Below are positions 10,594-31,852 of a stretch of 64,000 nt of DNA, one piece after another. The notes under the pieces were generated by a model. That model ran no database searches and was not told where the DNA came from. It saw only the letters and a list, made by a program, of their open reading frames with translations. How positions within the stretch are numbered: the stretch's first letter is position 1; each line of letters starts with the position of its first letter. Position numbers and translations under genes: made by a program. Where the stretch lies: the NCBI GenBank assembly GCA_964534795.1, contig CAZHQK010000180.1, positions 4,395 to 68,394 of the forward strand, read 5' to 3'. This DNA comes from an uncultured Acidobacteriota bacterium (GTDB taxonomy: Bacteria > Acidobacteriota > UBA6911).

Positions 10594-11754
10594 TCACGCG
10601 AGGCTCTCGCGCACCGAAAGCGTGATCTTGTAAAAGATCGTGATCATAAGGAAGCCGACCGCCCAGATGGCCAGCGAGATGGCGATTTCCGGCAGGGTGG
10701 GCGTGTACTCCGTCACCGCCCCGAGCGGCGAAGGCACGAAGCCCCCCACGATCAGGCCGAGGCCCTTGTCGATCCAGAGGGAAAGGAATACGGTCACGCA
10801 GGCCGCCGCCAGAAAGGCATCATGGCGGCGCAGCCGCGGCACGAGCAGAATCGCCAGCGACACCAGCGCCAACAGCACCGAGGCCCACATCCAGGGCACG
10901 AGCGAGGCGCGCCCGTGCAGTCCGACGAACAGGTACCGGAAGTGCTCCATGTGCTCCGGGATCCTGCTGTAAAAGACGGTGAAGACCTCCATCAGAATGA
11001 AGAACACGTTGACGATCATCGCGTAGGTCACGATCAGCGACAGCTTCCGTATCGGCTCGCTGCCGGGATCGAAGCGCGTCAGCCGGCGGATGATCATGCA
11101 CAGCAGGATCAGGAGCGCCGGCCCGGCGGAGAACGCCGAGGCCAGGAAGCGCGGTGCCAGGATCGCGGTCAGCCAGAACGAGCGGCCGGGAAGGCCGTTG
11201 TACAGGAAGGCCGTGACCGTGTGAATGCTGATCGCCCAGGGTATGGAGATGATGATGATCGGCTTGATCCATCCGGGAGGCGCGACTGCCTTGCGCTCGG
11301 CGCTCAGCGTCACGAGCGCGATCACCGCATTCAGCAGAAGGTATCCCGTCAGGGATACGAAATCCCAGAACATCATGGAACCGGGCGTGGGGTGGAGCAT
11401 GACATTCAGCACGCGCGTGGGCTGCCCCATGTCGACGAAGATGTAGAGCATGCACATGGTCACGGCCGCGATCGCGAGGAATTCCCCGAGGATCGTGATC
11501 TTGGAGAATACCTTCCAGTCGTGCAGATAGTATGGCAGAACCACCATGACGGCCGAGGCGGCCACGCCCACCAGGAAGGTGAATTGCGCGATGTAGAGCC
11601 CCCAGGTCACGTCACGGCTCAGCCCGGTTATGCCCAGCCCTTGGTCGAACTGGCGCAGATAGGCGATCACCCCCAAGCCGATCACGGCGAACAGGCAGAA
11701 AATCCATGCCCAGTAGCGCCGGCTTCCGACCACGGCCTTTTCGAACATGAACAT
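10594..11754 (-). CDS. dsrP: DsrP, NrfD/PsrC-family integral membrane subunit of the DsrMKJOP complex
   Basis: 386 aa with about 10 TM helices of NrfD-like hydrophobic architecture. It is the last gene of a dsrMKJOP-ordered operon. Confidence 0.85.
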   Translation of the reverse strand: MFMFEKAVVGSRRYWAWIFCLFAVIGLGVIAYLRQFDQGLGITGLSRDVTWGLYIAQFTFLVGVAASAVMVVLPYYLHDWKVFSKITILGEFLAIAAVTMCMLYIFVDMGQPTRVLNVMLHPTPGSMMFWDFVSLTGYLLLNAVIALVTLSAERKAVAPPGWIKPIIIISIPWAISIHTVTAFLYNGLPGRSFWLTAILAPRFLASAFSAGPALLILLCMIIRRLTRFDPGSEPIRKLSLIVTYAMIVNVFFILMEVFTVFYSRIPEHMEHFRYLFVGLHGRASLVPWMWASVLLALVSLAILLVPRLRRHDAFLAAACVTVFLSLWIDKGLGLIVGGFVPSPLGAVTEYTPTLPEIAISLAIWAVGFLMITIFYKITLSVRESLA

Positions 11755-11763
11755 GGGAGCACC

Positions 11764-12486
11764 TCACACGATGTAATAGATTTCGGGGGCGGTGCCGAGT
11801 TCCGCCTTGCGCCGGATGGCGAAGTTGGTGCGCAGCAGCTCGCGCACCGCCGAGCCGGGGTCTTCCAGGTCCCCGAACACCAGGGCCTTTTCCTCGCAGG
11901 CTTCCACGCAGGCGGGCGCCTGTCCGCGCGCGAGGCGCTCCTCGCAGAACGTGCATTTTTCCACCACGCCCTTCGTCCGGGTCGGATAATCCGGGTCGAT
12001 GCGCGCGATGTGCGGGCGCGGGTCAAGCCAGTTGAAGCTGCGCGAGCCGTACGGGCAGGCCGCCATGCAGTAGCGGCAGCCGATGCACCGGTGCCAGTCC
12101 ATCATGACGATCCCGTCCTCCCTCTTCCAGGTGGCCCGGGTCGGGCAGACGCGCACGCAGGGCGGGTTGTCGCAGTGATTGCAGAAGACCAGGAAGGGCT
12201 GGTCGCGAAAGACTTCGTTCACATAGGGCCCGCGCTCGGAAACGAATGCTTCCTGGAACGGCTCCTTCCAGATCCACTTGATTTCGTGCGCGCGGTTCGG
12301 GAAATCGGGTACGTTGTGCACCCGATGACAGGCCTGGATGCAGCGGTCGCACCCCTTTTCCTTCAGGCACTTCCGCGCATCGATGACCATGGCCCAGCGG
12401 CGCGCCGCCGCTTGCGCCGCGACCCGGCGGCCGGCGAGCGCCGCCATGGAAAAGCAACCCAGTCTGAGGAATTCCTTCCTATTCAT
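11764..12486 (-). CDS. dsrO: DsrO, periplasmic 4Fe-4S ferredoxin-like subunit with a Tat signal
   Basis: In-frame ATG at 12484-12486 (MNRKEFLRLGCFSMAALAG...) with a Tat-like motif. Multiple CxxCxxCxxxCP ferredoxin motifs place it in the NrfC/PsrB family. It overlaps dsrJ by 8 nt. Confidence 0.85.
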   Translation of the reverse strand: MNRKEFLRLGCFSMAALAGRRVAAQAAARRWAMVIDARKCLKEKGCDRCIQACHRVHNVPDFPNRAHEIKWIWKEPFQEAFVSERGPYVNEVFRDQPFLVFCNHCDNPPCVRVCPTRATWKREDGIVMMDWHRCIGCRYCMAACPYGSRSFNWLDPRPHIARIDPDYPTRTKGVVEKCTFCEERLARGQAPACVEACEEKALVFGDLEDPGSAVRELLRTNFAIRRKAELGTAPEIYYIV

Positions 12487-12919
12487 GAACCACCTCGCTG
12501 GAGTTCGCCCCTGCGGCGCGGGCCGCCCGGGTCTGCGCAACGGTTGCCGGGTCGACATGGCACTCCCAGCAGTAGGGAGTCCGGACGCCCGAGTAGTCAT
12601 GGCAGCGGTCGCAGAATTCAGCCTTGTTGGTATGGCACTGCTTCAGGCAGGTACCGGTGAGGCTGATCGTGTACTCCTTGCCGTCGAAGGCGGTGTAGCG
12701 GCGGTTGTTCTCGCGCACGGCCGCGTCGCGCCACTGCACGAGCAGGCTCATGTGCGAGGTCTTCATGTAATCCGTGGGTGCGACGCACGTGCCGCCGGGC
12801 GGCAGCTTGATCTCCGGCGCCGCGGCGCGCGCACCGGAGGCTGCGTTGTACCAGACGGGGAAGGTGACCAGTCCGAGGAAGAAAACCAAGCCGGCGAATA
12901 TCAGGGCTCGATCACGCAT
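12479..12919 (-). CDS. dsrJ: DsrJ, membrane-anchored triheme cytochrome c
   Basis: 146 aa with an N-terminal TM anchor and three CxxCH motifs (CLKQCH, CDRCH, CWECH). The conserved Cys in ...GGTCVAPTDYM is characteristic of DsrJ. Confidence 0.85.
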   Translation of the reverse strand: MRDRALIFAGLVFFLGLVTFPVWYNAASGARAAAPEIKLPPGGTCVAPTDYMKTSHMSLLVQWRDAAVRENNRRYTAFDGKEYTISLTGTCLKQCHTNKAEFCDRCHDYSGVRTPYCWECHVDPATVAQTRAARAAGANSSEVVHE

Positions 12920-16864: not shown

Positions 16865-17113
16865 CTATTCGGGTGCCGCTCCTTCCTTATGCGGCAGGGT
16901 GATGTAGCTGCCGCCGAAGTAGCTGTAAACGCAGCGACCGGAATCGATGAGGCTGCGGATGGCAAGCTTGCAGTCGTCCTTGGTGCAATTCTCCTCTCCG
17001 AACTTGGCGATCATGGCCTTGGTCAGATCGCCTGCTTTGAGGTTCTTCTTGCCGAGGCATTCGACCACCATCTTGTACATCTCCTCGGCAAGATCTTCGA
17101 TGCTCACGCCCAT
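16865..17113 (-). CDS. dsrD: DsrD (small winged-helix protein of reductive dsr operons)
   Basis: 82 aa, immediately downstream of dsrB. The C-terminal ..GRCVYSYFGGSYITLP resembles the DsrD YWSSGSTTMYGL wing. Confidence 0.8.
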   Translation of the reverse strand: MGVSIEDLAEEMYKMVVECLGKKNLKAGDLTKAMIAKFGEENCTKDDCKLAIRSLIDSGRCVYSYFGGSYITLPHKEGAAPE

Positions 17114-17122
17114 GGTCGCCTC

Positions 17123-18205
17123 CTAGTACTTGATATGCATGGAGCGGGCATAGGTCAATCCCGCGTGCTTGAAATCGTCGATATGATAGCGGGTGAACGG
17201 AATGCCCGTCAGCTGGAAAAAGCGCGGCCAGCCGATGCGCTCGATCCACTCGCCCATGCGCTCGTGCTTGCGGGCGTGCGCGGCGTAAACCTTGACGAGG
17301 TTGACGACCGCCTCGACCACCTCCGGCCAATGGGGCGGATTGTTGGGTATGAAGGGGATCGCCAGTTTCGAGAACTTGGGGGCGCTGCGCGCGTTGCTGA
17401 CCTTGCCCCCGACCCAGATCGACAGCCCGTCGTTGTCGGGATCGTTCAAAGGCATGGCGGGGCATACGGTGTAGCAGTTGGCGCAGAACATGCACTGCGC
17501 CTCCACCACTTCGACGGTCTGCTTGCCGTCGACGGTCTTGGGGCGGATGGCCCCCGTCGGGCATGAGGCGATCAAAGTCGGGATCTCGCAGACCTTGGGC
17601 AGCAGTTCGTGCTGCACCTTGGGCAGCCTGCGGTGCACCCCGAGGATCGCGATGTCGGAGCAGTGGACGGCACCGCACATGTTCAGGCAGCAGGCGAGGG
17701 CGATGCGCAGCTTGGCCGGCAGCTTTTCCTCGGTGAACTGGTCGCACAGGGCATCCATGACGCTCTTGACGATTCCCGAGGCGTCGGTGGCCGAGGAGTG
17801 GCAGTGGATCCAGCCCTGGGTATGCACGATATTGCTGATGGCATTGTTCGTGCCCCCCACCGGGAAGCCCGCGGCCTGGAGTTCCTTCTTCAAGGGCTCG
17901 ATATTCTCTTTCTTGTCCAGCAGGAACTCGACGTTGTTCCGGCTGGTGAAGCGGAGATATCCGCCGCAGTATTTGTCGGCCAGGTCGGCAAAGAACCGCA
18001 TGGTATGGACGCTGAGCAGACGGGGCGATCCCGCGCGGACGCTGTAGATGCGGTCTCCCGACTCGGCGACATGGCACAGGACCCCGGGGGCCACCGACTC
18101 GTGATACTTCCACTGGCCGTAATTCTTCTTGATGATGGGATGAAGGAACTTCTCGTAATGCGGAGGCCCGATATCGGTGATTCTCTTAGCAGGTTGCGTC
18201 GACAT
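17123..18205 (-). CDS. dsrB: dissimilatory sulfite reductase beta subunit
   Basis: 360 aa with the sirohaem/Fe-S Cys motifs ([23 protein letters not shown]) and a ferredoxin insert (CPTGAIRP...[12 protein letters not shown]). Confidence 0.95.
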
Positions 18206-18261: not shown

Positions 18262-19449
18262 CTAGTCTTCATCCTGCTGGAAGAAGATGTAAGGATTGTC
18301 TCTCGGGGCGCTGATCATTTCCGGCTGCGGGTCGAGACCGATGGCGTCGAGGAAATTCGCCATCCCCACCCGCTGGATCAGCTCTCCGATCCTCTCGCGA
18401 TTCATGCCGTGCTCGTCCCAGAACTCCCACACGCGGGAGATGAGCTCCTTCAGGGTCTCCAGCAGTTCCTCCTCCGGCACGAAGGGAATGATGACGGAGG
18501 AAAGCAATGCGCCCTGAACGATCGGCGCCTTGGCCCCGATCAAGACCACGGCGCCTCTTTCCGTGCCCGGGCGCAGGGCCTTGGGCATGAGGTTGATGCA
18601 GTGCATGCAGTGCACGCATTCCCGATTGTCGATCGTGAGCTTTTTGCCGTCCCATTCCATGCACTTGGAGGGGCACAGGTCGCACACCTCCTTCTGGATG
18701 CTCATGGCGGCGGCATACTCGCGCACGGCGTCGTCGTCCTGCCGGATGTCGTCCTTCCATGTGCCGATGACGGAGAGGTCGGCACGCGCGATCGATGCCA
18801 CGCAATCGTTCGGGCACCCGGAGAACTTGAACTTGAACTTGTACGGGAAGGGCGGGCGGTGGAGTTCGTCCTGGTAGGTCTGGGTGATGTCGTAGCAGAC
18901 CTTCAGGGTGTCGTAGCACGCCCACTCGCAACGCGCGGGGCCGACGCAGGCGGACGGCGTGCGCATGCAGGATCCCGAACCGCCCAGATCGAAACCGGCT
19001 TCGGTCAGTTCCTTGAAGCAGGGCTCGAGCTCTTCGGTCTTGGTGCCGAGAAAGATGATATCGCCCGTGGATCCGTGCATGTTGGTCAGGCCGGAGCCGT
19101 GACGCTCCCAGATGCCGGCCAAGGTGCGCAGCGCCTCGCTGGTATAGAACCATCCCGCCGGATGGTTGATGCGCATGGTATGGAAATGGGCCACGTTCGG
19201 GAATTTCTCCGGCACGTCGCTGTAGCGCCCGATGACGCCGCCGCCGTAACCGAGAACGCCCACGATACCGCCGTGTTTCCAGTGCCCGATCTTCTCCTCG
19301 TATGAAAGCTCCAGCTGCCCGAGGAGATCCTGGGTGACGGGATTGGTCGCGGCCGCCTTCTTCATCTCGCGGACGAAGCTCGGCCACGGTCCCGTCTCGA
19401 GCTTGTCGAGAAGCTCGGTCTTGGACTTCTTTTCATCAGCCATTATCAT
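18262..19449 (-). CDS. dsrA: dissimilatory sulfite reductase alpha subunit
   Basis: 395 aa with [31 protein letters not shown] and [14 protein letters not shown], plus the ferredoxin domain CPSKCM...CVHCMHCIN. It is of reductive type, given the linked dsrD. Confidence 0.95.
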
Positions 19450-19556: not shown

Positions 19557-20387
19557 TCACACCGAGTCCCTTCTTTCCTGCCGCGCGGCCGCCGCGCGCC
19601 TTCTTTCCTCCATCACGGCCTTCTTGATCTTCATGGTCTTCTCGCCCAGAAGGCTGAAGCGCAGCCACTGCATGGCCAGCTCCAGCAGATCCTGGTCGTC
19701 CTGGCGCGCCGCCTCGATCCTGGTCTCATCGATCTCGAAGAGCTCGAGGAATCGGGTCTCGAAGACGAACCGGCGAAAGCGGTCCAGGTCGTAGCAAGCC
19801 ATGAAGTACATGTCCATCTGCTGCGGGCCGAGCGGTTCCTCCTTGTCCCAATGCTCATGGAGCATCAGTTCCTTGAACGATGCACCCATCATCTCGTATT
19901 GCTCGATTCCCTGCCGCTGCAGCCACTCGCGGATCGTCGATCCTCCGCCGCGCCCGTGGCCGTGGCACAAATCCTCCCGCAGCATGAAGAAGAAGCGCCT
20001 TTCGTCCGCGTTCGGGTTCTGCGGCTCGGCCATGCCGAGCGGATACATGCGGCACGACCACGGGCGGTGCGCGTAGACGGAACATCCCTCTGCGGTCACG
20101 AACGGGCAGCGTTTGGTCTCCGGGTCCATGCGGATGAGCACCGCAGGGATCTTCTGCTCCGGAGAAAAGGGCGACAGCGTGTATTTCTGCAGGAACTCCG
20201 TCGAATCGATGCCCAGGCAGCGTTTCAGGCGGAGCACGTCGTACGGCGTGAGCACGATGGACACGTCGCGGCAGCATTCATTGAAGCACTCGAGGCCCTT
20301 CTCGCAGGAGAACACGATGCGGTCCTCGAGCCCCAGCCGCGGGTATTCCCGCAGTATCTTTTCCTGGATTGCGCCGCGCTCAGTCAT
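19557..20387 (-). CDS. YkgJ/UPF0153-family putative Zn/Fe-chelating protein (CxxCxxCC)
   Basis: 276 aa with an N-terminal CFNECCRD motif and further Cys ([19 protein letters not shown]). It is co-oriented between aprA and dsrA. Confidence 0.6.
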
Positions 20388-20664
20388 CTCCCTCGCCTTC
20401 GTCGGCCATGATGCCGCTCTTGAGGGCGTCCTTGGACCAGACCGGCAGGGGCCCCATTTCCCCGGTGGTGGGGTCGAGCCTGAGCCTGTAGGAAGCCGTC
20501 ACCTGGAAATGCTCCAGCATCCAGCGCCAGCCGCGCACGAAATAGCCGCACTGGTCGTTGAAGCAGACGTACTGATACTCCCCGCTCCAGCTGCTCAGCT
20601 GGGGGTTGGCCCACCGCACCATGGGCCGCCCGCAGTGGGGGCAAATCGGCGGCGCAGCGGCCAT
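20380..20664 (-). CDS. small zinc-ribbon protein (94 aa)
   Basis: Two CxxC/CxxxxC pairs ([15 protein letters not shown]), an acidic tail and a GGAGG RBS. It overlaps the ykgJ-like start by 8 nt. Confidence 0.45.
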
Positions 20665-20681: not shown

Positions 20682-20707
20682 GCGGCCCCCGCCGAAGCGG
20701 GGGCCGC
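20682..20707 (-). other. perfect 11-bp GC stem-loop immediately 3' of aprA
   Basis: gcggcccccgc cgaa gcgggggccgc, a tetraloop hairpin with no U-run. It is followed by GGAGG plus the ATG of the zinc-ribbon gene. Confidence 0.45.
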
Positions 20708-20727: not shown

Positions 20728-22662
20728 CTAGCCTCCCAGGAGCTCGTGCTCCTTGGGCTGCGCGAACACATAGCGTACCGGCCGCGCAAAGACCTCCCAC
20801 TGGTCGGTCTTGGGATCGTACTTGCAGTTGGCGAACACGCGCCACTTTTCCTCGTCGAGCTTCGGGCGATCGGCGCGGAAGTAATAGCCCGGCCAGCGCG
20901 TCTCCTCGCGGAAGAGCATGGTCCGGACATGGGCTTCCGCCTGCCACATGCGATGCACGTTCTCCCAGCAACGCATGAGCTCGTGCAGGTTGGCGGCCGC
21001 CAGCTTGGTCGAATCCTCCTTGAGGAGGGCGATCAATTCGAGAGCCCTCTTCAGGAGCGCCTCGTTGGTGGTGAACTGCGCGCTGATGCCGCCCGCGTAC
21101 TCATCCATGATCTTCTGCAGGCGGAACATGAACATGCGCGGCTTGATGTAGTTGGGATTGATCTCGGGATCGGTGGTCTCGCCCATGTGCTTCTGGTAGG
21201 TCTCCAGAGGCTGCAGGATCTCGACCATCTTGCGATTGATGGTCTCGTCGTCCACCTTGGGCATCGTGTTGTTCTCCACGATGAATTTGATGGCCGACTT
21301 GGCCGCGATCCGGCCCTCGGTGCACGAGCCCGAGGAGAACTTGTGGCTCGAGGCCCCCGAGGCGTCGCCCGCGCAGAAGAGCCCCTTGACCGTGGCCATG
21401 TTGGCATAGCCCCAGAAGTACTCGCCGCGGGTCTCGTCGCTCTGCAAATCCTCGGGACCGCTCACCCAGGCGCCGCTGGCTCCCGAGTGCGATCCGATGA
21501 AGTACGGCTCGGCCGCAGCGATCTCGGAACTCTTCACCTCGGGCTCCACGTTGGTGGCCGCCCACAGGATGGCCTGGGAGATGGTCATGTCAAGAAAGTC
21601 TTCCCAAGCCTCGGACTCGAGTTCCTTCATCTTTTTCTTGTAGGCCTTGGGGTCGTCCTTGTAGGCATCGGCGATGGCCTGGATGGCTTCCTCGGTTCTC
21701 ATGTAGATGGGCCCCTTGCCCTCCATGATATCGAGCATGCCCAGGTAATTGCGCAGGTTGGCGGGGATCGGCTTCACCCGGCCGTAAGGCCCCCACTTCT
21801 CGAGCTCGGCCTTGCGCTCCACCATGTAATCGCCGCCCTGCGAGTTGGTGGCCCGGGACTTGAAGAGCAGGAACCACGCACCCACCGGCCCGTAGGCATC
21901 CTTGAAGCGCACGGGAATGAAACGCACTTCCTGGCAGGTCATCTCGGCACCCGCCTGGATGGTGAAATAGGCCGAAGAACCGGAATTCCAGGGTGGATAC
22001 CACGCGCGGCCCACGCCCTCGCCCGAGCTCCTCGGCTTGAAGACGTGCACGGCACCGCCCATGGCCACCAGGGTGGCCTTCGCCTTGAAGACGTAAAACT
22101 TGTTTTCGCGCACCGAAAAGCCCACGGCCCCGGCGCAGCGATCGCCGTCCATGAGCGGACCGACGATGAAGACGCGCTCGAAGATCTGCCCGACGCCGGA
22201 CTGGAGCAGGGCGTTCTTGGCCGCCTCGGCCACGACGACCTTGTACGACTCGCCGTTGATCATCAGCTGCCAGCGGCCCTCGTGGACGTAAGCGCCGTTC
22301 TCGTCTTTCCAGATGGGGAGTCCCCATTTTTCGAATAGATGAACGGTCGAATCGACGTGACGGGCGATGTTGGCCACCAGGTCCTCGCGCGTGATGCCCA
22401 TCAGGTCGTTGCGCACGTAGTCGACATAGTCCTTTACCGTGTTCGTGCCGTCGCACAGGCCGACGTACTGGTTGATGGCCGAGAGGCCCATCGCCACGGC
22501 TCCGGAACGGTCGACCGCCGCCTTGTCGACCAGGGTCACCTTCAGGCCGTTCTGCTTGGCCCAATACGCCGCCTCGACCGCGGCGCCGCAGGCGGCCATG
22601 CCGCCGCCCAGAATCAACAGATCAGTTTCCACCACGACTTTTTCGAAATCGGCCATGTTCAT
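20728..22662 (-). CDS. aprA: adenylylsulfate (APS) reductase alpha subunit
   Basis: 644 aa with an FAD-binding N-terminus (LILGGGMAACGAAVEAAYW) and AprA-specific blocks (YFTIQAGAEMT, WGYANMATVKGLFCAGDASGAS). Confidence 0.95.
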   Translation of the reverse strand: MNMADFEKVVVETDLLILGGGMAACGAAVEAAYWAKQNGLKVTLVDKAAVDRSGAVAMGLSAINQYVGLCDGTNTVKDYVDYVRNDLMGITREDLVANIARHVDSTVHLFEKWGLPIWKDENGAYVHEGRWQLMINGESYKVVVAEAAKNALLQSGVGQIFERVFIVGPLMDGDRCAGAVGFSVRENKFYVFKAKATLVAMGGAVHVFKPRSSGEGVGRAWYPPWNSGSSAYFTIQAGAEMTCQEVRFIPVRFKDAYGPVGAWFLLFKSRATNSQGGDYMVERKAELEKWGPYGRVKPIPANLRNYLGMLDIMEGKGPIYMRTEEAIQAIADAYKDDPKAYKKKMKELESEAWEDFLDMTISQAILWAATNVEPEVKSSEIAAAEPYFIGSHSGASGAWVSGPEDLQSDETRGEYFWGYANMATVKGLFCAGDASGASSHKFSSGSCTEGRIAAKSAIKFIVENNTMPKVDDETINRKMVEILQPLETYQKHMGETTDPEINPNYIKPRMFMFRLQKIMDEYAGGISAQFTTNEALLKRALELIALLKEDSTKLAAANLHELMRCWENVHRMWQAEAHVRTMLFREETRWPGYYFRADRPKLDEEKWRVFANCKYDPKTDQWEVFARPVRYVFAQPKEHELLGG

Positions 22663-22669
22663 CCCTCCT

Positions 22670-23116
22670 CTACTCGCACGACTTCAATGTGAACAATTTG
22701 TTCAAGCGGTTGGACGCCGGCTCGGTGAAGAGGTTGGGGCTGTTCAGATCGCCGACCGTCGGGAACCCGCCATCCGGCACCGCCTGTCCCTCGGGGGTCG
22801 TGCGGATGGGGAACTTGAAGCGCTTCAGTGTACCGTTGCGGAATTTCACGGTCCACATGATCGAATCGGTTGAACGCAGGGGCGTAACGGATGCCCCCAT
22901 CGGGACGAAGTCGGCGTAGCCGCGGATCTCGATGGCCTGGGTAGGGCAGATCTTCACGCAGTTGAAGCACTCCCAGCACATCATGACGTCGCGGTTGTAC
23001 GCCTTCATCTTCTCCCGGTCCAGGACCATGAGGTCGTTGGGGCAAATGTACTGGCAAGCGGTCTTGTCCAGCGCCTTGCACCCATCGCATTTTTCGATAT
23101 TGACGTAACTCGGCAT
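22670..23116 (-). CDS. aprB: APS reductase beta subunit (2x[4Fe-4S])
   Basis: 148 aa, MPSYVNIEKCDGCKALDKTACQYICPNDLM...CWECFNCVKICPTQAI. This is the classic AprB. Confidence 0.95.
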   Translation of the reverse strand: MPSYVNIEKCDGCKALDKTACQYICPNDLMVLDREKMKAYNRDVMMCWECFNCVKICPTQAIEIRGYADFVPMGASVTPLRSTDSIMWTVKFRNGTLKRFKFPIRTTPEGQAVPDGGFPTVGDLNSPNLFTEPASNRLNKLFTLKSCE

Positions 23117-23133: not shown

Positions 23134-23739
23134 TCAGAACCGCCCGCCGGGGGAAACGAGCGGTTCCAGCTTGTCGGACTTATGACGACGGTAGAAACAC
23201 TCCCGCCGGCTGAGTTCCCCGAACCTGCAATTTTCGCGATAAGAAATCCCGCATTGCAGGCATACCTCATCCGGCCGGGAGCCGTGTTGGACGATCGATG
23301 CAGCCAGACGGTCCAGAAGCTCGGCCGCCCTCTGCAGCTCACCCGGATCGAACCGGCCCAACACCTCGGCCGCCTTGCGGTGCCTGGCCTCCTCGAAGGA
23401 CCGAAGCAGCGCGCGGCTTTCGTCGGTGAGACGGAAGCAGCTGCTGCGCCGATCCTCGGCCCTCTCGGCACGTGTCAGCAGCCGGCGCCGTACCAGCTTC
23501 TCGACCGTCTTGCTGGCGGCGGCGTCGCTGACCCCGAGGAAATCCGCTGCATCGCCGACCGTGTGTTCGCCGGTCGCTGAACCGAAAAACAGCAGCTTGA
23601 GATGAGAAAAACTCAGCGATTCGTCCGCGCTCTCCCGCAGGATCTCCTGCTCGAAAGCGCGGCGGATCGCTGCGGCGAAGACGTGCGCACTGCCCAGAAA
23701 ATCCGTCCGAACCTCGGCACTCCTCGCCTCGCAAGCCAT
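23134..23739 (-). CDS. MarR-family transcriptional regulator with a Cys-rich C-terminal extension, lead gene before aprBA
   Basis: ATG at 23737-23739 with GGAGGAAG upstream. The wHTH region runs LSFSHLKLLFFGSATGEHTVGDAADFLGVSDAAASKTVEKLVRRRLLTR. The C-terminus is ..CLQCGISYRENCRFGELSRRECFYRRH. It lies 17 bp upstream of aprB on the same strand. Confidence 0.6.
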   Translation of the reverse strand: MACEARSAEVRTDFLGSAHVFAAAIRRAFEQEILRESADESLSFSHLKLLFFGSATGEHTVGDAADFLGVSDAAASKTVEKLVRRRLLTRAERAEDRRSSCFRLTDESRALLRSFEEARHRKAAEVLGRFDPGELQRAAELLDRLAASIVQHGSRPDEVCLQCGISYRENCRFGELSRRECFYRRHKSDKLEPLVSPGGRF

Positions 23740-24081
23740 TGAACTTCCTCCATCCCTAAAGCGGGATGAAATCCGGACCCAGACCAACGGCTGGCGTCCG
23801 TCGTTTAACCCTGTCGAATTTAAACTCGATTTAGTCCTCATGCAAGAGTTTTTTTCGAAAATATGGCCAGATCTGGCAGGAAATTATTGTCAAAAGATAT
23901 TAAATCAGCACAAGCACCCGGCCATTTCGGCGATTTGAAAAAGATCGGCGACGCCGAACAGCCGACGGCAGGAAAGACTTCCCATGGCTGGGCCGCGACC
24001 CTCGATCCGGGATCGGAAGTCTCATTTGGCTCACTCTGAGACCGATTTGCCCTGCATTGCTCGGCGATAGGCCGCGTTTGC

Positions 24082-24150
24082 TGCAAAAAAAAATTTAAAT
24101 ATGATGACAAGCCGGTCAATTGCGTTTATTATTAACCGCCGAAAGGATCC
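24082..24150 (+). promoter_or_regulatory. conserved 69-nt upstream element, copy 1 (qmoABC leader)
   Basis: Ungapped 48/69 identity to 36638..36706. The core GCGTTTATTATTAACCG(C/G)CGAAA(G/A)GATCC matches at 27/29. GATGACAA is shared 14 nt upstream. A GC hairpin (cccgcc-tgaaggtcc-ggcggg) follows directly. Confidence 0.55.
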
Positions 24151-24608
24151 CGCCTGAAGGTCCGGCGGGAACCTGTGAGCAGGACTGGTTCCTGAAGTGC
24201 TCCGGCCCGGGTCGAGTCGGAGAGCGGAGGCAGCGAGGTCATCATCATCGATTCGGCAAGCTATGAAAACGGCCCGTGATCGCCATCATCGCATTACCCG
24301 TCATGGCGGACCCCGCGACACATCCCCTCGACTCCTCCCCCGTCGGCCCGGGGCAGCGCTGCGGCCTGTTCCTGCGATAGAGAAAGGCAGGTGTACGACG
24401 CTCGCCCCGAGCTCGGAGCCGCGGCGCTCCGGGCTCGTCGCGCGATGACAGGCGCAGGCACCGGCTGAGCCGGCCGACGTGCCCGGCAACCCGGTCTCGA
24501 GGCTACCGACGCCTTCGCATCGGGCCGGCGGCCGGACGCTCCCGCCGGGCGCGAGACAAGCCGGGGCCGAAGCCATCGACCAGAAGTCATATTCGCGAGA
24601 GACACAAT

Positions 24609-25868
24609 ATGAATGCCAAAGCAAAACCCATTCTAGTAATCGGCGGGGGCATAGCCGGGATGACGGCGGCGGTCGAAGCCGCCGAGGTAGGGTATCCCGT
24701 CGTCCTCGTGGAAAAGGAAGCGTATCTGGGAGGACGCGTAATGCGCACCTACCGCTACTTCCCGAAGATGTGTCCCCCGACCTGCGGCTTCGAAATCAAC
24801 GTGCGCCGGATCCGGCAGAATCCCAGAATCACGGTCCACACGCTTGCGACCGTGGAGGAGATCACCGGCCGCGCGGGTGCTTTCCGCGCCAGAATCAGGA
24901 AGCGCCCCCGATACGTGACCGGCCGGGAACCGCTGAGCGATTCCCTGGCGCAACAGCTGACCTCCGAGCGTCCCGACGACTTCAACCTGGGCATGGGCCG
25001 GACCAAGGCACTCTATCTGCCGCACGCAATGGCCTACCCGCCGCAGTATGTGCTGGACCGGGACGCCCTCTCCGCAGCCGACGCCGAAATCCTCAGGAAA
25101 AACGCCGCCGGGGCCGTCGATCTCGACATGGCCGAAGAGGAGCTGCTGGTCGAGGCGGGCACCGTCATCATCGCCACCGGATGGCGCCCGTATGACGCCG
25201 CCAAGCTCGACCATCTGGGCTTCGGAAAATGCCGCAACGTCATCACCAATGTCATGATGGAACGGCTGGCGGCGCCCGGCGGGCCGACGGGCGGAGAGAT
25301 CCTGCGGCCCTCCGACGGCAGGAAAGCGGAGAACGTGGCCTTCGTCCAATGCGCCGGTTCGCGCGACGAGAACCATCTTCCCTACTGCTCGGCCGTCTGC
25401 TGCATGGCTTCGCTCAAGCAGGCCAGGTACCTGAGGGAAAAGAACGCGAACGCCAAGGCGACCATCTTCTACATCGATATCCGCGCCGTGGGCCGCCTCG
25501 AGAAGTTTTATTACGACATGCTCGAGGATGCCAACGTCACCTATGTCAAGGGAAAGGTGGCCGGAATCAGCGAAGAACCCGGAAGCGGCAACCTGATCCT
25601 GGACGTGGAGGACACGCTGGCCGGCAGAAAGCAGCATCGCGGATTCGATCTTGCGGTCCTGGCGACCGGCATGGTGCCCAATACCGCCGATGCCGGCCTG
25701 CCCCTGCAGCTCCAATGCGACGACTACGGTTTCATCGACGGCACCACGGACATCGAGGGCGTGTATGCGGCCGGCTGTGTCAAGCGCCCGTGCGACGTTG
25801 CGCGTACGACCAAGGACGCCACCGCGGCTGCGTTGAAGGCCATCCAGTGCCTTCAGAGGGGAGAATGA
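24609..25868 (+). CDS. qmoA: QmoA (HdrA-like FAD flavoprotein)
   Basis: 419 aa with an FAD Rossmann start (ILVIGGGIAGMTAAVEAAE) and the HdrA-like Cys cluster (CAGSRDENHLPYCSAVCC). Confidence 0.9.
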   Translation: MNAKAKPILVIGGGIAGMTAAVEAAEVGYPVVLVEKEAYLGGRVMRTYRYFPKMCPPTCGFEINVRRIRQNPRITVHTLATVEEITGRAGAFRARIRKRPRYVTGREPLSDSLAQQLTSERPDDFNLGMGRTKALYLPHAMAYPPQYVLDRDALSAADAEILRKNAAGAVDLDMAEEELLVEAGTVIIATGWRPYDAAKLDHLGFGKCRNVITNVMMERLAAPGGPTGGEILRPSDGRKAENVAFVQCAGSRDENHLPYCSAVCCMASLKQARYLREKNANAKATIFYIDIRAVGRLEKFYYDMLEDANVTYVKGKVAGISEEPGSGNLILDVEDTLAGRKQHRGFDLAVLATGMVPNTADAGLPLQLQCDDYGFIDGTTDIEGVYAAGCVKRPCDVARTTKDATAAALKAIQCLQRGE

Positions 25869-25872
25869 ACCG

Positions 25873-28146
25873 ATGAAAGACAAGATCGGCGTCTTTATCT
25901 GCACGGGATACGGGATCGCGGAAGCGCTCGATATCGAAGCGCTGCGCAAGGTGGTCACCTCGGAATGCAAGGTGCCCTTCTGCAAGACGGTGGATTCCTG
26001 TGAGGGGCCCGCCCTGCAAGGGATCATCGAGGATATTGCCAGGGAAGGCCTGGCCAAGGTCGTCATTGCCGGGATTTCGCCGCGCCGCTACCCGGACGTC
26101 GCTTTCCCCGAGGGCGTCGTCGTCGAAAGGTTTGCGCTCCTCGAACACGTGGTATGGACGCAACCGGCGCGCGACGAGGATACGCAGATGATGGCGGAGG
26201 ACTACCTGCGCATGTACGTCACCAAGGTGCGCGAGATGGAACCTCCCCAGCCCTTCAAGCCGGAAGAAACCCTCGACAAGAGCATCCTGGTGGTCGGAGG
26301 CGGGATCACCGGGATGACCGCGGCGCTCGAAGGCGCCCGGGCCGGGTACCGCGTGCGCCTGGTCGAGAAGAGCGACCGCCTGGGAGGCTGGCTCGCCCGG
26401 CAGCACAAGTCGGTGCCCACCAAGCCGCCTTACAGAGAACTGGAGCCGACGGGGGTCGAGGATCTCATCAAGAAGGTCGAGAGCGACCCGCACATCACCG
26501 TCTACAAGTCGGCCGCCACCGGCCGCATCGCGGGCGCCCCCGGACTTTTCGACGTGACCCTGCATTCGACCGGCAACGGCCGCCCCGCCGGGGAAGTCGT
26601 CGATACCTTCCGCGTGGGGGCGATCATCCAGGCGACCGGCTGGAGACCGGCGGAACTCCGAGATACCCTGCCCTACGGCCGGCTGCCCGACGTCATCCGC
26701 AACGTCGAGCTGGAAGAAATGGTGCGCAGCCAAGGGCGCATCATCCGCCCTTCGGACGGCAGGGAGGTCAAGAGCATCGCCTTCATCCAGTGCGGCGGAT
26801 CGCGGCGCAAGGAACACCATTCCTACTGTTCTTCGATCTGCTGTCTGACCTCGCTCAAGCAGGCCCTCTACCTGCGCGAGCGGCAGAGCGACGGCAAGGC
26901 TTACATCTTCTACGAATTCATCCGGACGCCGGGGCACTACGAAGATTTCTACCGCCGGGTGCAGCAGGATCCCGGCGTGTTCCTCACCAAGGGTGAGGTG
27001 ACCGACGTGACCCGCGAGTCGGACGGCTCGTTGCTGGTCACGGCCCAGGACACCATGCTGGGCGAGCGGATCCAGGTCCGGGTCGACCTGGTCGTGCTCG
27101 CGGCCGGGATGGTGCCGAATTCGGCCGACGGCGAGGCTATCCGGGCGCTGCACGACGCCCAGGCTACGGCGACGCGCGGCGAATCGGAGGTGCAGCGCAA
27201 GGAGGCCGCCGAAAAGGCCGAACGGCTCAAGCACCACGAGGGCACGGAGATACTCAACCTGGTCTACCGCCAGGGACCCGACCTGCCGATCCTGCAGTAC
27301 GGCTTTCCCGACTCCCATTTCATCTGCTTCCCCTATGAGAGCCGGCGCACGGGAATCTATCCCGCGGGCAGCGTACGCCAGCCCATGGACGGAGTCGGCG
27401 CCCGCGAGGACGCGGCCGGTGCCGCCTTGAAGGCAATCCAGTGCGTGGAGATGACCGCCAGGGGCGAAGCGGTCCACCCGCGCGCGGGCGACAAATCCTA
27501 CCCTGAATTCTTCCTCCAGCGCTGCACCCAGTGCAAGCGCTGCACCGAGGAATGCCCCTTCGGCGTGCTCAACGAGGACGTCAAGGGCACCCCCCTGCTC
27601 CAGGCCACCCGCTGCCGGCGCTGCGGCGTCTGCATGGGGGCCTGCCCCGAGCGCATCGTGTCCTTCAAGGACTATTCGGTGCATATCATCGCCGAGATGA
27701 TCAAGGCGGTGGAGGTTCCGGACGAAGCCGAGGAAAAGCCGAGAGTCCTGGCCCTGCTGTGCGAAAACGACGCCATCCCCGCCCTGGACCTCGTGGGTCT
27801 GCACCGCCTCCATTACAACCCGTTCGTGCGCGTCGTCCCGGTGCGCTGCCTGGGCTCGGTCAACGCCGTCTGGGTCTCCGAGGCGATTTCGGCCGGCTAC
27901 GACGGCGTGCTGCTGGTGGGCTGCAAATACGGCGACGATTACCAGTGCCACTTCATCAAGGGGAGCGAGCTGGCGTTCACCCGCGGCGGGAACATCCGGG
28001 AAAAGCTCAAGCAGATGTCCATGGAGAACGAGAGGGTCGAACTCCACCAGCTACAGATCAACGAGTATGACAAGCTGCCGATGATTTTCGACAACTTCAT
28101 GAAAGTCATCGAAAAGTTCGGCATGAATCCATTCAAGGGCATGTGA
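25873..28146 (+). CDS. qmoB: QmoB (HdrA-like flavoprotein with ferredoxin and MvhD-like C-terminal domains)
   Basis: 757 aa with FAD motifs, the HdrA Cys cluster, 2x CxxCxxCxxxCP and an MvhD-like tail. Confidence 0.9.
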   Translation: MKDKIGVFICTGYGIAEALDIEALRKVVTSECKVPFCKTVDSCEGPALQGIIEDIAREGLAKVVIAGISPRRYPDVAFPEGVVVERFALLEHVVWTQPARDEDTQMMAEDYLRMYVTKVREMEPPQPFKPEETLDKSILVVGGGITGMTAALEGARAGYRVRLVEKSDRLGGWLARQHKSVPTKPPYRELEPTGVEDLIKKVESDPHITVYKSAATGRIAGAPGLFDVTLHSTGNGRPAGEVVDTFRVGAIIQATGWRPAELRDTLPYGRLPDVIRNVELEEMVRSQGRIIRPSDGREVKSIAFIQCGGSRRKEHHSYCSSICCLTSLKQALYLRERQSDGKAYIFYEFIRTPGHYEDFYRRVQQDPGVFLTKGEVTDVTRESDGSLLVTAQDTMLGERIQVRVDLVVLAAGMVPNSADGEAIRALHDAQATATRGESEVQRKEAAEKAERLKHHEGTEILNLVYRQGPDLPILQYGFPDSHFICFPYESRRTGIYPAGSVRQPMDGVGAREDAAGAALKAIQCVEMTARGEAVHPRAGDKSYPEFFLQRCTQCKRCTEECPFGVLNEDVKGTPLLQATRCRRCGVCMGACPERIVSFKDYSVHIIAEMIKAVEVPDEAEEKPRVLALLCENDAIPALDLVGLHRLHYNPFVRVVPVRCLGSVNAVWVSEAISAGYDGVLLVGCKYGDDYQCHFIKGSELAFTRGGNIREKLKQMSMENERVELHQLQINEYDKLPMIFDNFMKVIEKFGMNPFKGM

Positions 28147-28197
28147 GCGCGGCGCGACCGCCCGCGGCTCGAGAACCATGCAGGGTGCGGAGGAAAC

Positions 28198-29469
28198 ATG
28201 ACAGTGGAAAGTGCCGTCAAGCGGGAAAGCGGCGCAGGAATGCCGGTGCCTGCGGCGCCGGGGCCCGGGCTTTCCGGCGACACGCGACCGGTGCGCATCG
28301 AACCGGACCTGGAGTTCATCCGTGCGCTTATCAGCGGGGGGGCGGACACGGTCAAGAAGTGTTTCCAGTGCGGAACGTGCTCGGCGACCTGCACCCTTTC
28401 GCCCGATCCCGAGCCGTTTCCGCGCAAGGAAATGGCCTGGGCGCTGTGGGGCTGGAAGGACCGGCTGGTGCGCGATCCCGATGTCTGGCTGTGCCACCAG
28501 TGCCAGGACTGCTCCGTTCGCTGCCCGCGGGGCGCGCGGCCGGGTGACGTGCTGGCGGCGGTGCGCCAGGAATGCGTCGCGCACTATGCCTTCCCCCGTT
28601 TCCTGGCGCGCTGGATGAGCCGGCCGCAGTACGTCCCCCTGCTCCTGGCCATCCCCATAGCACTTCTGACCTTGGCCCTGCTGCTGCGGGATACGCTCGC
28701 GGCCGCCCTGGGTTTCTCACCTCAACCGGGGGCGCGCATCATCTATGCCTACTCGAGCGTCTTCCCGCACTGGCTGCTGAACGGCTTCTTCGGTCTCTTC
28801 AGCCTGCTGGCATTGCTCGCCATGCTGGTGAGCGCCCGGCGCTTCTGGCGGGCTCTCGAAGAAGCGGATCGCATGCCGCGCATCCGGGGGCTTGCCGCCA
28901 GCACCTGGGCGGCGCTGCGCAGCATCGCCACGCACAGGAATTTCGACCTGTGCACGGCGGCGCGGCCGCGCTACCTTTCCCATCTCTGCGTGCTCGCCGG
29001 TTTCGTAGCCCTGACGCTGGTCACGCTATGGGTGATCACCGCCGAATACAACCCCCTGATCCGCTCCGACTTCGTCTATCCTTTCGGCTTCTGGAATCCG
29101 TGGAAGATGCTGGCCAACGTGGGCGGAATCGCCGTGCTGGCCGGCTGCCTGCTCATGGCCTGGGAGCGCCTGCGCGAGGGCGGCTCGATGGGCATCGGGG
29201 CCTATTTCGACTGGGTGCTGCTCGCCGACCTGTTTCTGGTCGTCGCCACGGGATTCGCCACCGAGGTGCTGCACTACCTGCGCCTGGAACCCCACCGACA
29301 TATCGCCTACTTCACGCACCTGGTCTTCGTCTTCACGCTGCTGATCTACCTGCCCTATTCGAAACTGGCCCACCTGGTCTACCGCGCCCTGGCCATGATC
29401 CATGCCGACCGCATCGGGCGCATCCTGGGAAGCGCCCCGACTCCGGGCGCTGAAAGGACGGGGCGGTGA
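28198..29469 (+). CDS. qmoC: QmoC (HdrC-like Fe-S domain fused to an HdrE/NarI-like cytochrome b membrane domain)
   Basis: 423 aa with an N-terminal CFQCGTCSATC...CHQCQDCSVRCPRG, then 5-6 TM helices. Confidence 0.85.
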   Translation: MTVESAVKRESGAGMPVPAAPGPGLSGDTRPVRIEPDLEFIRALISGGADTVKKCFQCGTCSATCTLSPDPEPFPRKEMAWALWGWKDRLVRDPDVWLCHQCQDCSVRCPRGARPGDVLAAVRQECVAHYAFPRFLARWMSRPQYVPLLLAIPIALLTLALLLRDTLAAALGFSPQPGARIIYAYSSVFPHWLLNGFFGLFSLLALLAMLVSARRFWRALEEADRMPRIRGLAASTWAALRSIATHRNFDLCTAARPRYLSHLCVLAGFVALTLVTLWVITAEYNPLIRSDFVYPFGFWNPWKMLANVGGIAVLAGCLLMAWERLREGGSMGIGAYFDWVLLADLFLVVATGFATEVLHYLRLEPHRHIAYFTHLVFVFTLLIYLPYSKLAHLVYRALAMIHADRIGRILGSAPTPGAERTGR

Positions 29470-29855: not shown

Positions 29856-29907
29856 GCACGCAGCCGGCGGTCGGCAAATGCAAGCAGCCTTGGAGGGTCG
29901 AGCGAAA

Positions 29908-30633
29908 ATGGACAGAAGAGAATTTCTGACGGCCGGCGGGGGCCTCCTGTTGGCGGGCGCCGCCGGCACCTATGCGGTACGGTTGCTCACGCAGGCCGGG
30001 GCCGTCGAAGCGGTCACGGCAGGGCGGCACAGGTGGGGCATGGTAGTCGACCTGCGCAAGTGCCGACCGGACTGCACGGCGTGCCTGGAGGCCTGCAGGC
30101 TGGAAAACAACACGGCTTCCGTCGGCGACGCGCGCTGGGACGTGCATTGGATCCGCAAGGTCCATGTCAAGCCGAAGAACGGCGGGGCCGAGCGCTCCGT
30201 GGTGCTCCTGTGCAACCATTGCGACCATCCGCCGTGCGCCCAGGTGTGCCCCGTGCAGGCCACTTACAAGCGTGCGGACGGCATCGTCATCGTGGACCAT
30301 CACCGCTGCATCGGGTGCCGCTACTGCATGATCGCCTGCCCCTACAACGCCCGCTACTTCAATTTCAAGGAAAGCGAGGAGTGGCCCAACAAGGAGTTCC
30401 CCAAACGCTCGCACGGCGTCGCGGAAAGCTGCACGCTGTGCGCCCATCTCCTCGACGTCGGCAAGAAACCGGCGTGCGTCCAGGCCTGCGAGCGCGCACA
30501 GGCCGGAGCGCTCGTCGTGGGCGACCTGAACGATCCGCAGAGCGAGATTTCCAGGTTGGTTTCCGAGAATTCCGTCAAACGGCTCAGGGAGGATCTGGGC
30601 ACGGAGCCCAAGGTTTACTACATCGGATTATGA
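29908..30633 (+). CDS. DsrO-like Tat-exported 4Fe-4S ferredoxin subunit (NrfC/PsrB family)
   Basis: Tat signal MDRREFLTAGGGLLLAGAAG, a GGAGGG RBS and four ferredoxin-type Cys clusters. Confidence 0.8.
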   Translation: MDRREFLTAGGGLLLAGAAGTYAVRLLTQAGAVEAVTAGRHRWGMVVDLRKCRPDCTACLEACRLENNTASVGDARWDVHWIRKVHVKPKNGGAERSVVLLCNHCDHPPCAQVCPVQATYKRADGIVIVDHHRCIGCRYCMIACPYNARYFNFKESEEWPNKEFPKRSHGVAESCTLCAHLLDVGKKPACVQACERAQAGALVVGDLNDPQSEISRLVSENSVKRLREDLGTEPKVYYIGL

Positions 30634-30655
30634 CGGTTCACCTGTGAGGGACGGC

Positions 30656-31852
30656 ATGGAAGTCAAATACGAGCGCATCGCAGGAAACTCCAGGCACTAT
30701 TACCTGGCGCTGGCGGCCTTCGCCGCCGTCGGCCTGGCGGGGGTGCTGTGCACCTTCTGGGTTCTCGGTCAGGGGCTGTGGGTGACCGGCATGTACAACC
30801 GCGTGCCCTGGGGCCTGCAAATCGTCATGGCAATCTATTACATCGGGCTCTCGGCGGGCTCCCTGGTGATCTCCGGCCTCTACGGCGTCTTCGGCAAGCT
30901 GGAGTACAAGCCTTTCGCCAGAACCGCCGTCTATCTCGGCATGCTCTTCATGATCGCCGGCCTGCTTTCCATTCTCACCGACCAGGGCCGGATGGACCGG
31001 GTCTTCGTCCAGCCCTTCGTCCATTTCAACCTCCTCTCCCTGTTCTCGATCAACCCGATGCTGTATATCAGCTACATCCTCATCTGCATCGTCTACCTCT
31101 ACGCGCTCTTCCGGGACAAAAAGAAGCTCACCCGGGTCGTCGCCACCCTGGCCTTCGCCTGGGCTTTCGGCGTCCACAGCGGCACGGGGGCGATCTTCGG
31201 CTTCGGTCCCAGAACGCTCTACGATTCGCCGCTGCTGCCGGCCAGCTTCGTCGTGGCCGCCATGGCCTCGGGCACCGGCCTGATGATCGCCTTGCTCGTC
31301 GCCCTCTTCCGCCTCACCCGCAGGCACCTGGATGACGAGCTGGTCTTCGGGCTGGGACGCCTGCTGGCGCTGTTCGTTCTGGTGGTCCTCTATTTCCTGG
31401 CGGTGGAAAACCTGTATTTGGTTTACCAGGTGGAGTGGCGCGAGGCGGCCCTATACTACCTCTTCGGCGGATTCCACAGCGTGATCTTCTGGGTCGGCCT
31501 CATCGGGCTCGGCTGCGCCGTGCCGCTCTTCCTGCTGTTTTACCCGCGGACCTCGAAGTCGATCCCCTGGGTGGTGACGGCGGGCTGCCTGGTGGTTTTG
31601 GGAGTGCTGTGCGAGCGGTACGTGATCGTGATCCCCGGCCTGACGCGCCCGCCGGAGATTTTCCCCGGGATGGAAGTCAGCGGGCCGGGCCTGATCGAAG
31701 GGGTGGCGAGCTACGCGCCGACGCTCGTCGAATTCTGCCAGGCGCTGGGGGTGCTGGGAATCATCGGATTCCTGTTCCTCGCGGGCCTGAAGGTGTTCAA
31801 GTTGTTGCCGGCCGAGGCGCGCATCGCGAAACAGGCTGGCCCGGCCAGTTGA
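30656..31852 (+). CDS. DsrP-like NrfD/PsrC-family integral membrane subunit
   Basis: About 398 aa with 10 predicted TM segments. A GAGGGA RBS precedes the ATG at 30656. The gene is 11 nt from the preceding Fe-S subunit gene. Confidence 0.8.
   Translation: MEVKYERIAGNSRHYYLALAAFAAVGLAGVLCTFWVLGQGLWVTGMYNRVPWGLQIVMAIYYIGLSAGSLVISGLYGVFGKLEYKPFARTAVYLGMLFMIAGLLSILTDQGRMDRVFVQPFVHFNLLSLFSINPMLYISYILICIVYLYALFRDKKKLTRVVATLAFAWAFGVHSGTGAIFGFGPRTLYDSPLLPASFVVAAMASGTGLMIALLVALFRLTRRHLDDELVFGLGRLLALFVLVVLYFLAVENLYLVYQVEWREAALYYLFGGFHSVIFWVGLIGLGCAVPLFLLFYPRTSKSIPWVVTAGCLVVLGVLCERYVIVIPGLTRPPEIFPGMEVSGPGLIEGVASYAPTLVEFCQALGVLGIIGFLFLAGLKVFKLLPAEARIAKQAGPAS

Follow-up and report, generated by a model that had tools for sequence, protein, structure and literature searches.

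The gene pair and its neighbourhood

The analysed stretch of DNA, called the window in the following, comprises 64,000 nt, and all coordinates given here refer to its numbering. It carries the apr, qmo and dsr genes and, between aprA and dsrA, a pair of additional genes. The pair as well as the apr and dsr genes are encoded on the minus strand in the order MarR-aprB-aprA-94-aa ORF-276-aa ORF-dsrA-dsrB-DsrD-like. The aprA gene for the alpha subunit of APS reductase (20728-22662; TIGR02061, 902 bits), the proposed client of the pair, is preceded by aprB for the beta subunit (22670-23116; TIGR02060, 205 bits), and a gene for a MarR-family regulator (23134-23841; Pfam MarR_2, E 2e-9) is located 17 nt upstream of aprB. 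The MarR gene is found at the same position ahead of aprB in many acidobacterial loci, and it is likely to be a dedicated regulator of the apr operon. On the other side of the pair, dsrA (18262-19449; TIGR02064, 591 bits) is followed by dsrB (17123-18205; TIGR02066) and then, as judged from the gene order in the window, by an 82-aa DsrD-like ORF, dsrC, a gene for an RsbRD_N (DsrT-like) protein, dsrMK and an Fe-S/NrfD gene pair resembling dsrOP, all on the same strand. The genes qmoA, qmoB and qmoC (24609-29469), which were assigned from their ORFs, from synteny in tblastn searches and, for qmoC, from a Pfam match, are on the plus strand and are thus divergent in the window. Scans of the window with Rfam and for tRNA genes gave no matches.

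The first gene of the pair (20664-20380, minus strand) encodes a 94-aa zinc-ribbon protein with a match to the Pfam family Ogr_Delta (PF04606), and the second one (20387-19557, minus strand) a 276-aa protein of the CxxCxxCC/YkgJ family (PF03692). As developed below, the 276-aa protein may be an Fe-S enzyme dedicated to APS reductase and a candidate lysine N-methyltransferase, and the zinc ribbon may serve it as an adaptor subunit. Two co-oriented genes that overlap by 8 nt had already been described in the initial annotation, and we found both ORFs with the same boundaries. A GGAGG sequence is present 7 nt ahead of the ATG of the 94-aa ORF. The overlap ATGACTGA (20380-20387, minus strand) joins the stop codon of the 94-aa ORF to the start codon of the 276-aa ORF. 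Such an overlap of stop and start codons was found in 45 of 72 pairs of zinc-ribbon and CxxCxxCC genes, and the two genes are separated by 0 to 30 nt in 18 more. The overlapping codons indicate that the two ORFs are translationally coupled, and the zinc ribbon would thus be made in step with the 276-aa protein. The database contains 504 homologues of the 94-aa and 4846 homologues of the 276-aa protein, mostly from Acidobacteriota MAGs, and the alignments have 31 and 57 invariant columns, respectively; both ORFs are therefore real genes rather than the product of chance. The apr, qmo and dsr models of Pfam and NCBIfam matched neither protein, in good agreement with the earlier view that both genes are outside the canonical pathway.

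The 63-nt spacer between aprA and the pair contains a G+C-rich stem-loop with an 11-bp stem and a 4-nt loop (20682-20707, minus strand), and this confirms the hairpin that had been noticed 3' of aprA, ahead of the 94-aa gene. For the spacer in the window, the minimum free energy is -39.2 kcal/mol (z = -4.2 as compared to shuffled sequences), and z is below -2 in 42 of 48 related aprA-to-pair spacers. In AT-rich lineages, the stem is followed by a U-run, as in an intrinsic terminator. The hairpin is likely to lower the expression of the downstream genes, either as a partial terminator or as a transcript-stabilising element. The recurrence of a stable hairpin after aprA points to an expression of the pair and of qmo that is weaker than that of aprBA.

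Linkage to aprBA and qmo

The gene context of the pair was compared in five genome loci, two long acidobacterial contigs, 80 metagenome loci, two Chloroflexota contigs and three loci that were reached via the zinc-ribbon protein. In the 80 metagenome loci, the CxxCxxCC protein is from 71% down to 44% identical to the 276-aa protein. Of the 41 metagenome loci with enough flanking sequence, 40 have aprA on the upstream side of the CxxCxxCC gene, and the zinc-ribbon gene immediately precedes the latter in 58 out of 65. Directly downstream, 36 of 52 loci have qmoA and seven have qmoC (together 43 of 52). The usual acidobacterial order is MarR-aprB-aprA-ZR-CxxCxxCC-qmoABC-dsrAB-dsrD (ZR, zinc ribbon), and an Ignavibacteriaceae locus (L003) has the order qmoAB...aprBA-ZR-CxxCxxCC-qmoC. 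All three loci that were found via the zinc-ribbon protein have the apr-linked order as well. If qmo has been relocated, as in the window and in the loci L051, L074 and L086, the pair remains beside aprA.

A different picture emerged for dsr: in none of the 52 related loci is the pair directly followed by dsrA, and a role of the pair as a link between apr and dsr is therefore ruled out. The position exactly between the apr and dsr genes, as highlighted in the initial annotation, is real in the window and particular to it, and dsrA adjoins the pair here for no other reason than the divergent placement of qmoABC on the other side of aprBA. Only in this window are the dsrAB genes adjacent to the pair, and they stand outside the conserved module; the conserved linkage is to aprBA and qmo rather than to dsr. 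The idea that the pair is tied to dissimilatory sulfate reduction thus holds, given the position of aprA upstream in nearly all assessable loci. Likewise, the co-occurrence with aprBA and dsrAB that had been suggested as a check is strongly positive for aprBA (40 of 41 loci) and reveals no specific link to dsrAB (0 of 52). The proposed connection to sirohaem lost its basis, since the pair has no specific tie to dsrAB, which in the usual order follow only after qmoABC.

The module is present in Acidobacteriota and Ignavibacteriota and, without the zinc ribbon, in Chloroflexota. Six loci have the CxxCxxCC gene so close behind aprA that a zinc-ribbon gene would not fit between them. For one such zinc-ribbon-less protein (locus L075), all named relatives are from Chloroflexota MAGs, and the annotated Chloroflexota contigs have the order sat-aprB-aprA-CxxCxxCC-qmoA-qmoB. 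The absence of the zinc ribbon from the six Chloroflexota-type loci implies that it is not essential. Since the CxxCxxCC gene is kept beside aprA even there, the tightest link is that between aprA and the CxxCxxCC gene; the zinc ribbon often accompanies them but can be dispensed with. Among cultured sulfate reducers, the locus tags of aprA and qmoA are consecutive in Thermodesulfovibrio sp. N1 and in Desulfotomaculum reducens, leaving no pair at this position. Green sulfur bacteria have the order sat-aprBA-qmoABC (PMC6338057). Full-length relatives of the 276-aa protein with 36 to 41% identity were found away from apr genes in one Thermodesulfovibrio MAG and in one archaeon, and the fold is therefore not specific for Apr. 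Look-ups of the sequence clusters yielded few taxa, i. e. Zixibacteria, Planctomycetota, a Deltaproteobacteria MAG and a Methanosarcinales MAG. The AprA proteins of the carriers are closely related (72 to 92% identical).

The genes of the pair have been noticed before as unnamed hypotheticals, a fact that had escaped the initial annotation, and they have never been given a family, a survey or an explanation. In Thermonerobacter thiotrophicus, such genes are mentioned only as "hyp-hyp" (Thiel et al., PMC6338057); we liken them to the pair because they are located between aprA and qmoC, as are the genes of the pair in the Ignavibacteriaceae locus L003. In the sulfur loci of peatland Acidobacteria, syntenic genes 1 to 4 were listed as being of unknown function (Hausmann et al. 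2018, PMC6018796), and these are likened by the acidobacterial hosts and the type of locus. Both papers give no family, distribution or function for the genes. Our literature search found no paper that joins aprBA with YkgJ, or CxxCxxCC with sulfate. The DVU0851 gene resembles the pair in being an uncharacterised gene attached to the apr-qmo operon of D. vulgaris. It was rejected as a homologue: it is located after qmoC, and it has been reported to lack homologues outside of Desulfovibrio.

Two protein families and their relatives

The 276-aa protein matches the Pfam family CxxCxxCC (PF03692) with 39.4 bits (cut-off 23; E 1e-9) over residues 28-118, and the relatives encoded in the loci L003, L004 and L005 also pass the threshold of this family. 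Its assignment to the YkgJ family with a CFNECC motif thus stands; the motif is part of the sequence LECFNECC at residues 32-39. Eight cysteines (C28, C34, C38, C39, C94, C102, C112 and C141) are invariant among 43 sequences, and His144 is nearly so. The first motif has the form CX5CX3CC in 81 of 85 loci. The family is acidic (median pI 5.3) and has a conserved C-terminal helical domain with the signature D-x-D-R-F-R-x-F-V-F. An exhaustive profile search retrieved 2561 cluster representatives at E <= 1e-3, of which 239 also passed a limit of E <= 1e-30. One full-length member of the family (P0371) is fused to a radical-SAM domain, and a radical-SAM gene directly follows the gene of the archaeal homologue in locus L005; both were counted as a link to SAM chemistry.

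The 276-aa protein contains no ferredoxin-type motif, no match to the Fer4 family of Pfam and no recognisable SAM-binding motif, and the Pfam search at E <= 10 gave no DUF3109 signal. Even at E <= 10, neither protein of the pair nor three relatives matched any NCBIfam model. This library presumably includes a FliB model, and the lack of any match implies that there is no similarity at the level of FliB. An AF2 model of the 276-aa protein (pLDDT 82) had no match in a fold search of the PDB, and profile searches with both families against PDB chains returned nothing relevant. Foldseek searches with this model for DpdM-like phage proteins in BFVD gave a best E value of 0.37, which is not significant.

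We found two characterised relatives in the CxxCxxCC/YkgJ superfamily, FliB and DpdM, and both are metal-dependent amine N-methyltransferases. FliB, the flagellin lysine-N-methyltransferase of Salmonella, binds an oxygen-sensitive [4Fe-4S] cluster via a CX4CX3CC motif and has eight conserved cysteines; the cluster is required for the SAM-dependent methylation of flagellin lysines. The 276-aa protein also has eight conserved cysteines and an N-terminal cysteine motif that ends with CC, but the first spacer of this motif is one residue longer (CX5CX3CC). In contrast to the 276-aa protein, FliB is about 400 aa long and acts on flagellin, the D-x-D-R-F-R-x-F-V-F C-terminal domain is specific to the 276-aa family, and no zinc-ribbon partner has been described for FliB. 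The second relative, the phage protein DpdM, belongs to DUF3109, and YkgJ is its homologue in E. coli. DpdM is a dPreQ1 N-methyltransferase, and in vivo it adds a methyl group to the aminomethyl moiety of preQ1. DpdM has a motif of the CxxxCxxCC type and four more cysteines, and its authors predict two metal sites, one formed by three cysteines of the motif and C150, and the other by the fourth cysteine of the motif, C42, with C92, C102 and C112. The number and order of the cysteines match those in the 276-aa protein, where C28, C34 and C38 would belong with C141, and C39 with C94, C102 and C112, a correspondence obtained by sequence mapping. The eight invariant cysteines most likely provide a [4Fe-4S] site and, in addition, another site for a metal. 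The substrate of DpdM is a modified DNA base, and its groove is positively charged, whereas the 276-aa family is acidic. The similarity of the 276-aa protein to both FliB and DpdM is limited to the cysteine-rich domain of about 90 aa.

The 94-aa protein matches Ogr_Delta with 46.4 bits (cut-off 26.3), a family membership that had been missed in the initial annotation. The latter had described a zinc ribbon with an acidic tail. The four-cysteine zinc ribbon (invariant C8, C11, C34 and C39) and the tail DEGEGDD are both present, but the tail is not conserved in the family and was dismissed as a functional feature. The spacing C-x2-C-x22-C-x4-C occurs in 62 of 64 loci and is identical in a phage Ogr-like protein, as it is in the Ogr/Delta activators of P2/P4-like phages. 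In contrast to these activators, the 94-aa protein is acidic rather than basic (median pI of 5.6 for the family as compared to 9.2 for the phage Ogr-like protein), and it has a Trp-rich C-terminal half of its own with five conserved Trp residues and an invariant GPLPVWS. Moreover, its gene is chromosomal, located in a respiratory operon and coupled to the gene of the putative Fe-S protein. A tblastn search against 50,697 phage records returned only an Ogr/Delta-like gene at E = 1, which is not significant, with similarity restricted to residues 8-42. The acidic and Trp-rich character of the zinc ribbon fits better to protein binding than to DNA binding, and it most likely binds the 276-aa protein as a small adaptor or targeting subunit.

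Possible functions in APS reduction

Judged by gene order, the pair is an accessory module of the AprBA/Qmo step, and not of the Dsr step. An AprBA-directed activity of the pair would have known targets. In D. vulgaris, the lysine in the peptide SADSIMWTVK*FR of ApsB is trimethylated, and that in ...GPVGAWFLLFK*AK of ApsA carries one, two or three methyl groups (the asterisk follows the modified lysine; Chhabra et al. 2011, PMC3125180, Table 1). The same study (PMC3125180) reported that the methylated lysines are conserved and that MetK and AhcY were co-purified together with ApsA, and it did not name a methyltransferase. The equivalent residues in the window are Lys268 of AprA and Lys91 of AprB. 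The motif GPVGAWFLLFK of AprA is kept in 49 of 50 and the motif DSIMWTVKFR of AprB in 34 of 35 loci. In chain A of the A. fulgidus structure 1JNR, Lys268 aligns to position 281, 16 residues past the position that aligns to Arg-265.

The kinship to N-methyltransferases and the conserved lysines of AprBA that are methylated in D. vulgaris led us to propose that the 276-aa protein may be a FliB/DpdM-like, metal-dependent lysine N-methyltransferase dedicated to AprBA. The zinc ribbon would help to recognise AprBA as the client, and the complex would install the methyl-lysines on AprA (Lys268) and AprB (Lys91). The fliB gene presumably adjoins that of its substrate. We regard an AprBA-dedicated Fe-S lysine methyltransferase with a zinc-ribbon adaptor as a tentative proposal that, in our estimate, would be correct in only about one case out of three. 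The narrower version, a dedicated oxygen-sensitive [4Fe-4S]/SAM lysine methyltransferase system with a FliB/DpdM-like catalytic and a zinc-ribbon targeting subunit, draws on the analogy to the two characterised enzymes and is a little more doubtful still. The conservation of the lysines does not discriminate between the explanations since they are conserved irrespective of the presence of the pair. Moreover, AprAB of D. vulgaris is methylated, but in cultured sulfate reducers aprA is immediately followed by qmoA; there, another enzyme or an unlinked homologue must therefore be responsible. The superfamily is large and has only two characterised members, and this speaks against the methyltransferase reading, as do the restriction of the similarity to the cysteine-rich domain, the lack of NCBIfam matches and of a SAM-binding motif, the loci devoid of a zinc ribbon and the family members away from apr genes.

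APS reductase is among the central enzymes of the sulfur cycle worldwide. Sulfate reduction was recently proposed for many lineages, among them Acidobacteriota, Ignavibacteriota and Chloroflexota, from which no sulfate reducer is in culture, and their operons are therefore read solely by analogy to Desulfovibrio. The conserved gene or gene pair between aprBA and qmo suggests that APS reduction has a component that is absent at this position from the model organisms. If the pair indeed encoded a methyltransferase for AprBA, this would account for the modification seen in D. vulgaris and give a genetic handle on its role. The enzyme would be the first one identified for the methyl-lysines of dissimilatory sulfate-reduction enzymes, and it would extend the FliB/DpdM class to respiratory enzymes, i. 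e. to a third class of substrates for this fold. Whatever the mechanism, the gene can usefully serve to mark apr-qmo operons of this type.

Alternatively, the pair might act in the maturation of APS reductase, similar to NarJ: it could insert the Fe-S clusters of AprB or the FAD of AprA, or hold AprBA until docking to Qmo. This reading is the closest to the original suggestion. In the narGHJI operon, narJ is located between the genes for the catalytic subunits and the membrane complex, and the pair has a corresponding place within its own operon. The tight linkage to aprA also fits to a maturation factor, as does the strong hairpin after aprA, which would reduce the expression of the downstream genes relative to aprBA. 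However, neither protein is similar to known chaperone or Fe-S scaffold families, AprBA matures without the pair in cultured sulfate reducers, and the eight invariant cysteines as well as the kinship to FliB and DpdM point to a catalytic metalloenzyme. We therefore consider a NarJ-like function to be unlikely.

A transfer of electrons is similarly improbable. In this case, the 276-aa Fe-S protein and the zinc ribbon would carry or gate electrons between QmoABC and AprBA. The route of the electrons from Qmo to AprBA is not known to be settled, and the gene is located exactly between aprA and qmoA or qmoC in most loci (43 of 52). Moreover, a cluster could be held by the eight invariant cysteines, among them a motif that in FliB ligates [4Fe-4S]. 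Yet the protein lacks the ferredoxin-type features mentioned above, and none of the characterised members of the superfamily is an electron carrier. In addition, AprBA and QmoABC are the same in cultured sulfate reducers, which do well without a CxxCxxCC gene at this position, and the gene remains with aprA rather than with qmo if the latter has been relocated. A role as chaperone, insertion factor or redox partner, as envisaged in the initial annotation, is thus possible but not supported; the characterised relatives are N-methyltransferases.

Redox-sensing regulation is less probable again, and we give it little credit. Here, the Ogr/Delta zinc finger would act as an activator and the Fe-S protein as a sensor of oxygen or redox state, and together they would tune apr, qmo and dsr in facultatively aerobic hosts. 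The Ogr_Delta match above the cut-off, with exactly the spacing of the phage activators, and the oxygen sensitivity of the FliB cluster are in agreement with this idea, and the acidobacterial carriers are predicted to respire oxygen, too (PMC6018796). On the other hand, the zinc ribbon differs from the phage protein in its acidic pI and shares with it no more than residues 8-42 (E = 1), the MarR gene is already present directly upstream of aprB in many loci, and the Chloroflexota retain the Fe-S gene without the zinc finger. Moreover, regulator genes are not usually found amid the structural genes of an operon.

Finally, it is highly improbable that the genes are passengers of unrelated function that entered the operon a single time and were passed on with aprBA by descent or transfer ever since: such a single insertion that spread with the cassette is conceivable given the 72 to 92% identity of the carrier AprA proteins and the absence of the pair from the aprA-qmoA interval of cultured sulfate reducers, but both the position and the strong constraint have been kept despite a divergence to 44% identity, in at least three phyla and through several rearrangements of the operon.

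Position of the qmo genes and the MarR-family gene

In the window, the qmoABC genes (24609-29469, plus strand) are oriented divergently from MarR-aprBA, and the two units are separated by a 767-nt intergenic region (23842-24608) that contains sigma-70-like sites on both strands (at about 24092-24132), located in an AT-rich patch. This arrangement differs from that in most of the related loci: Among the 52 metagenome loci in which the gene directly downstream of the zinc-ribbon/CxxCxxCC pair could be assessed, this gene was a qmo gene in 43, i.e. qmoA in 36 and qmoC in seven cases. One locus, L076 (4-12261), has two qmo sets: A qmoCBA set precedes aprBA and is encoded on the other strand, whereas qmoAB follows the pair.

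The MarR-family gene (23134-23841) is located 17 nt upstream of aprB, and a MarR gene occupies the equivalent position upstream of aprB in many acidobacterial loci. The protein encoded in the window has a Cys-rich C-terminal tail, CLQCGISYRENCRFGELSRRECF, and it may regulate the apr operon in response to redox state or metals.

Variant loci and the genomic company of the CxxCxxCC family

Two Chloroflexota contigs, L089 (2581-10389) and L090 (5542-13566), carry the CxxCxxCC gene in their apr-qmo operons without the zinc ribbon. Here, qmoB is followed by a gene for a CCG-domain (HdrB-like) Fe-S protein, an order that resembles the Gram-positive arrangement. On the Zixibacteria-type contig L068 (7560-8840), the genes for an ECF sigma factor and for toast-rack/LiaF-like proteins precede the pair; no aprA gene was found within 7.5 kb upstream of it, and the contig breaks off immediately behind the two genes. 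The zinc-ribbon ORF of L068 may have an N-terminal extension, the longest ORF being 145 aa.

Two observations link the CxxCxxCC family to radical-SAM proteins: In the 690-aa protein P0371, a radical-SAM domain is fused to a full-length family module, and in the uncultured archaeon represented by L005 (6221-7873), a radical-SAM gene lies less than or equal to 10 nt downstream of the family gene. Taken together, the fusion and the adjacent gene hint at a wider functional tie of this family to SAM enzymes.

Further genes in and next to the sulfur island

Directly after qmoC, genes for a 4Fe-4S dicluster protein and an NrfD-type membrane protein (29878-31852) form a second pair of this kind, the other being the DsrOP-like one at 10594-12600. 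A CoA-disulfide-reductase-like fusion of a pyridine-nucleotide-disulfide oxidoreductase and a rhodanese domain adjoins the sulfur island in the window (31922-33574) as well as in two acidobacterial genomes (L006, 4852-6495; L007, 4738-6390).

Finally, dsrB is followed by an 82-aa ORF (16865-17113) that has no match in Pfam or NCBIfam and shares 73-85% identity with the ORF at the same position of related loci. This ORF presumably encodes DsrD, scoring below the library models.
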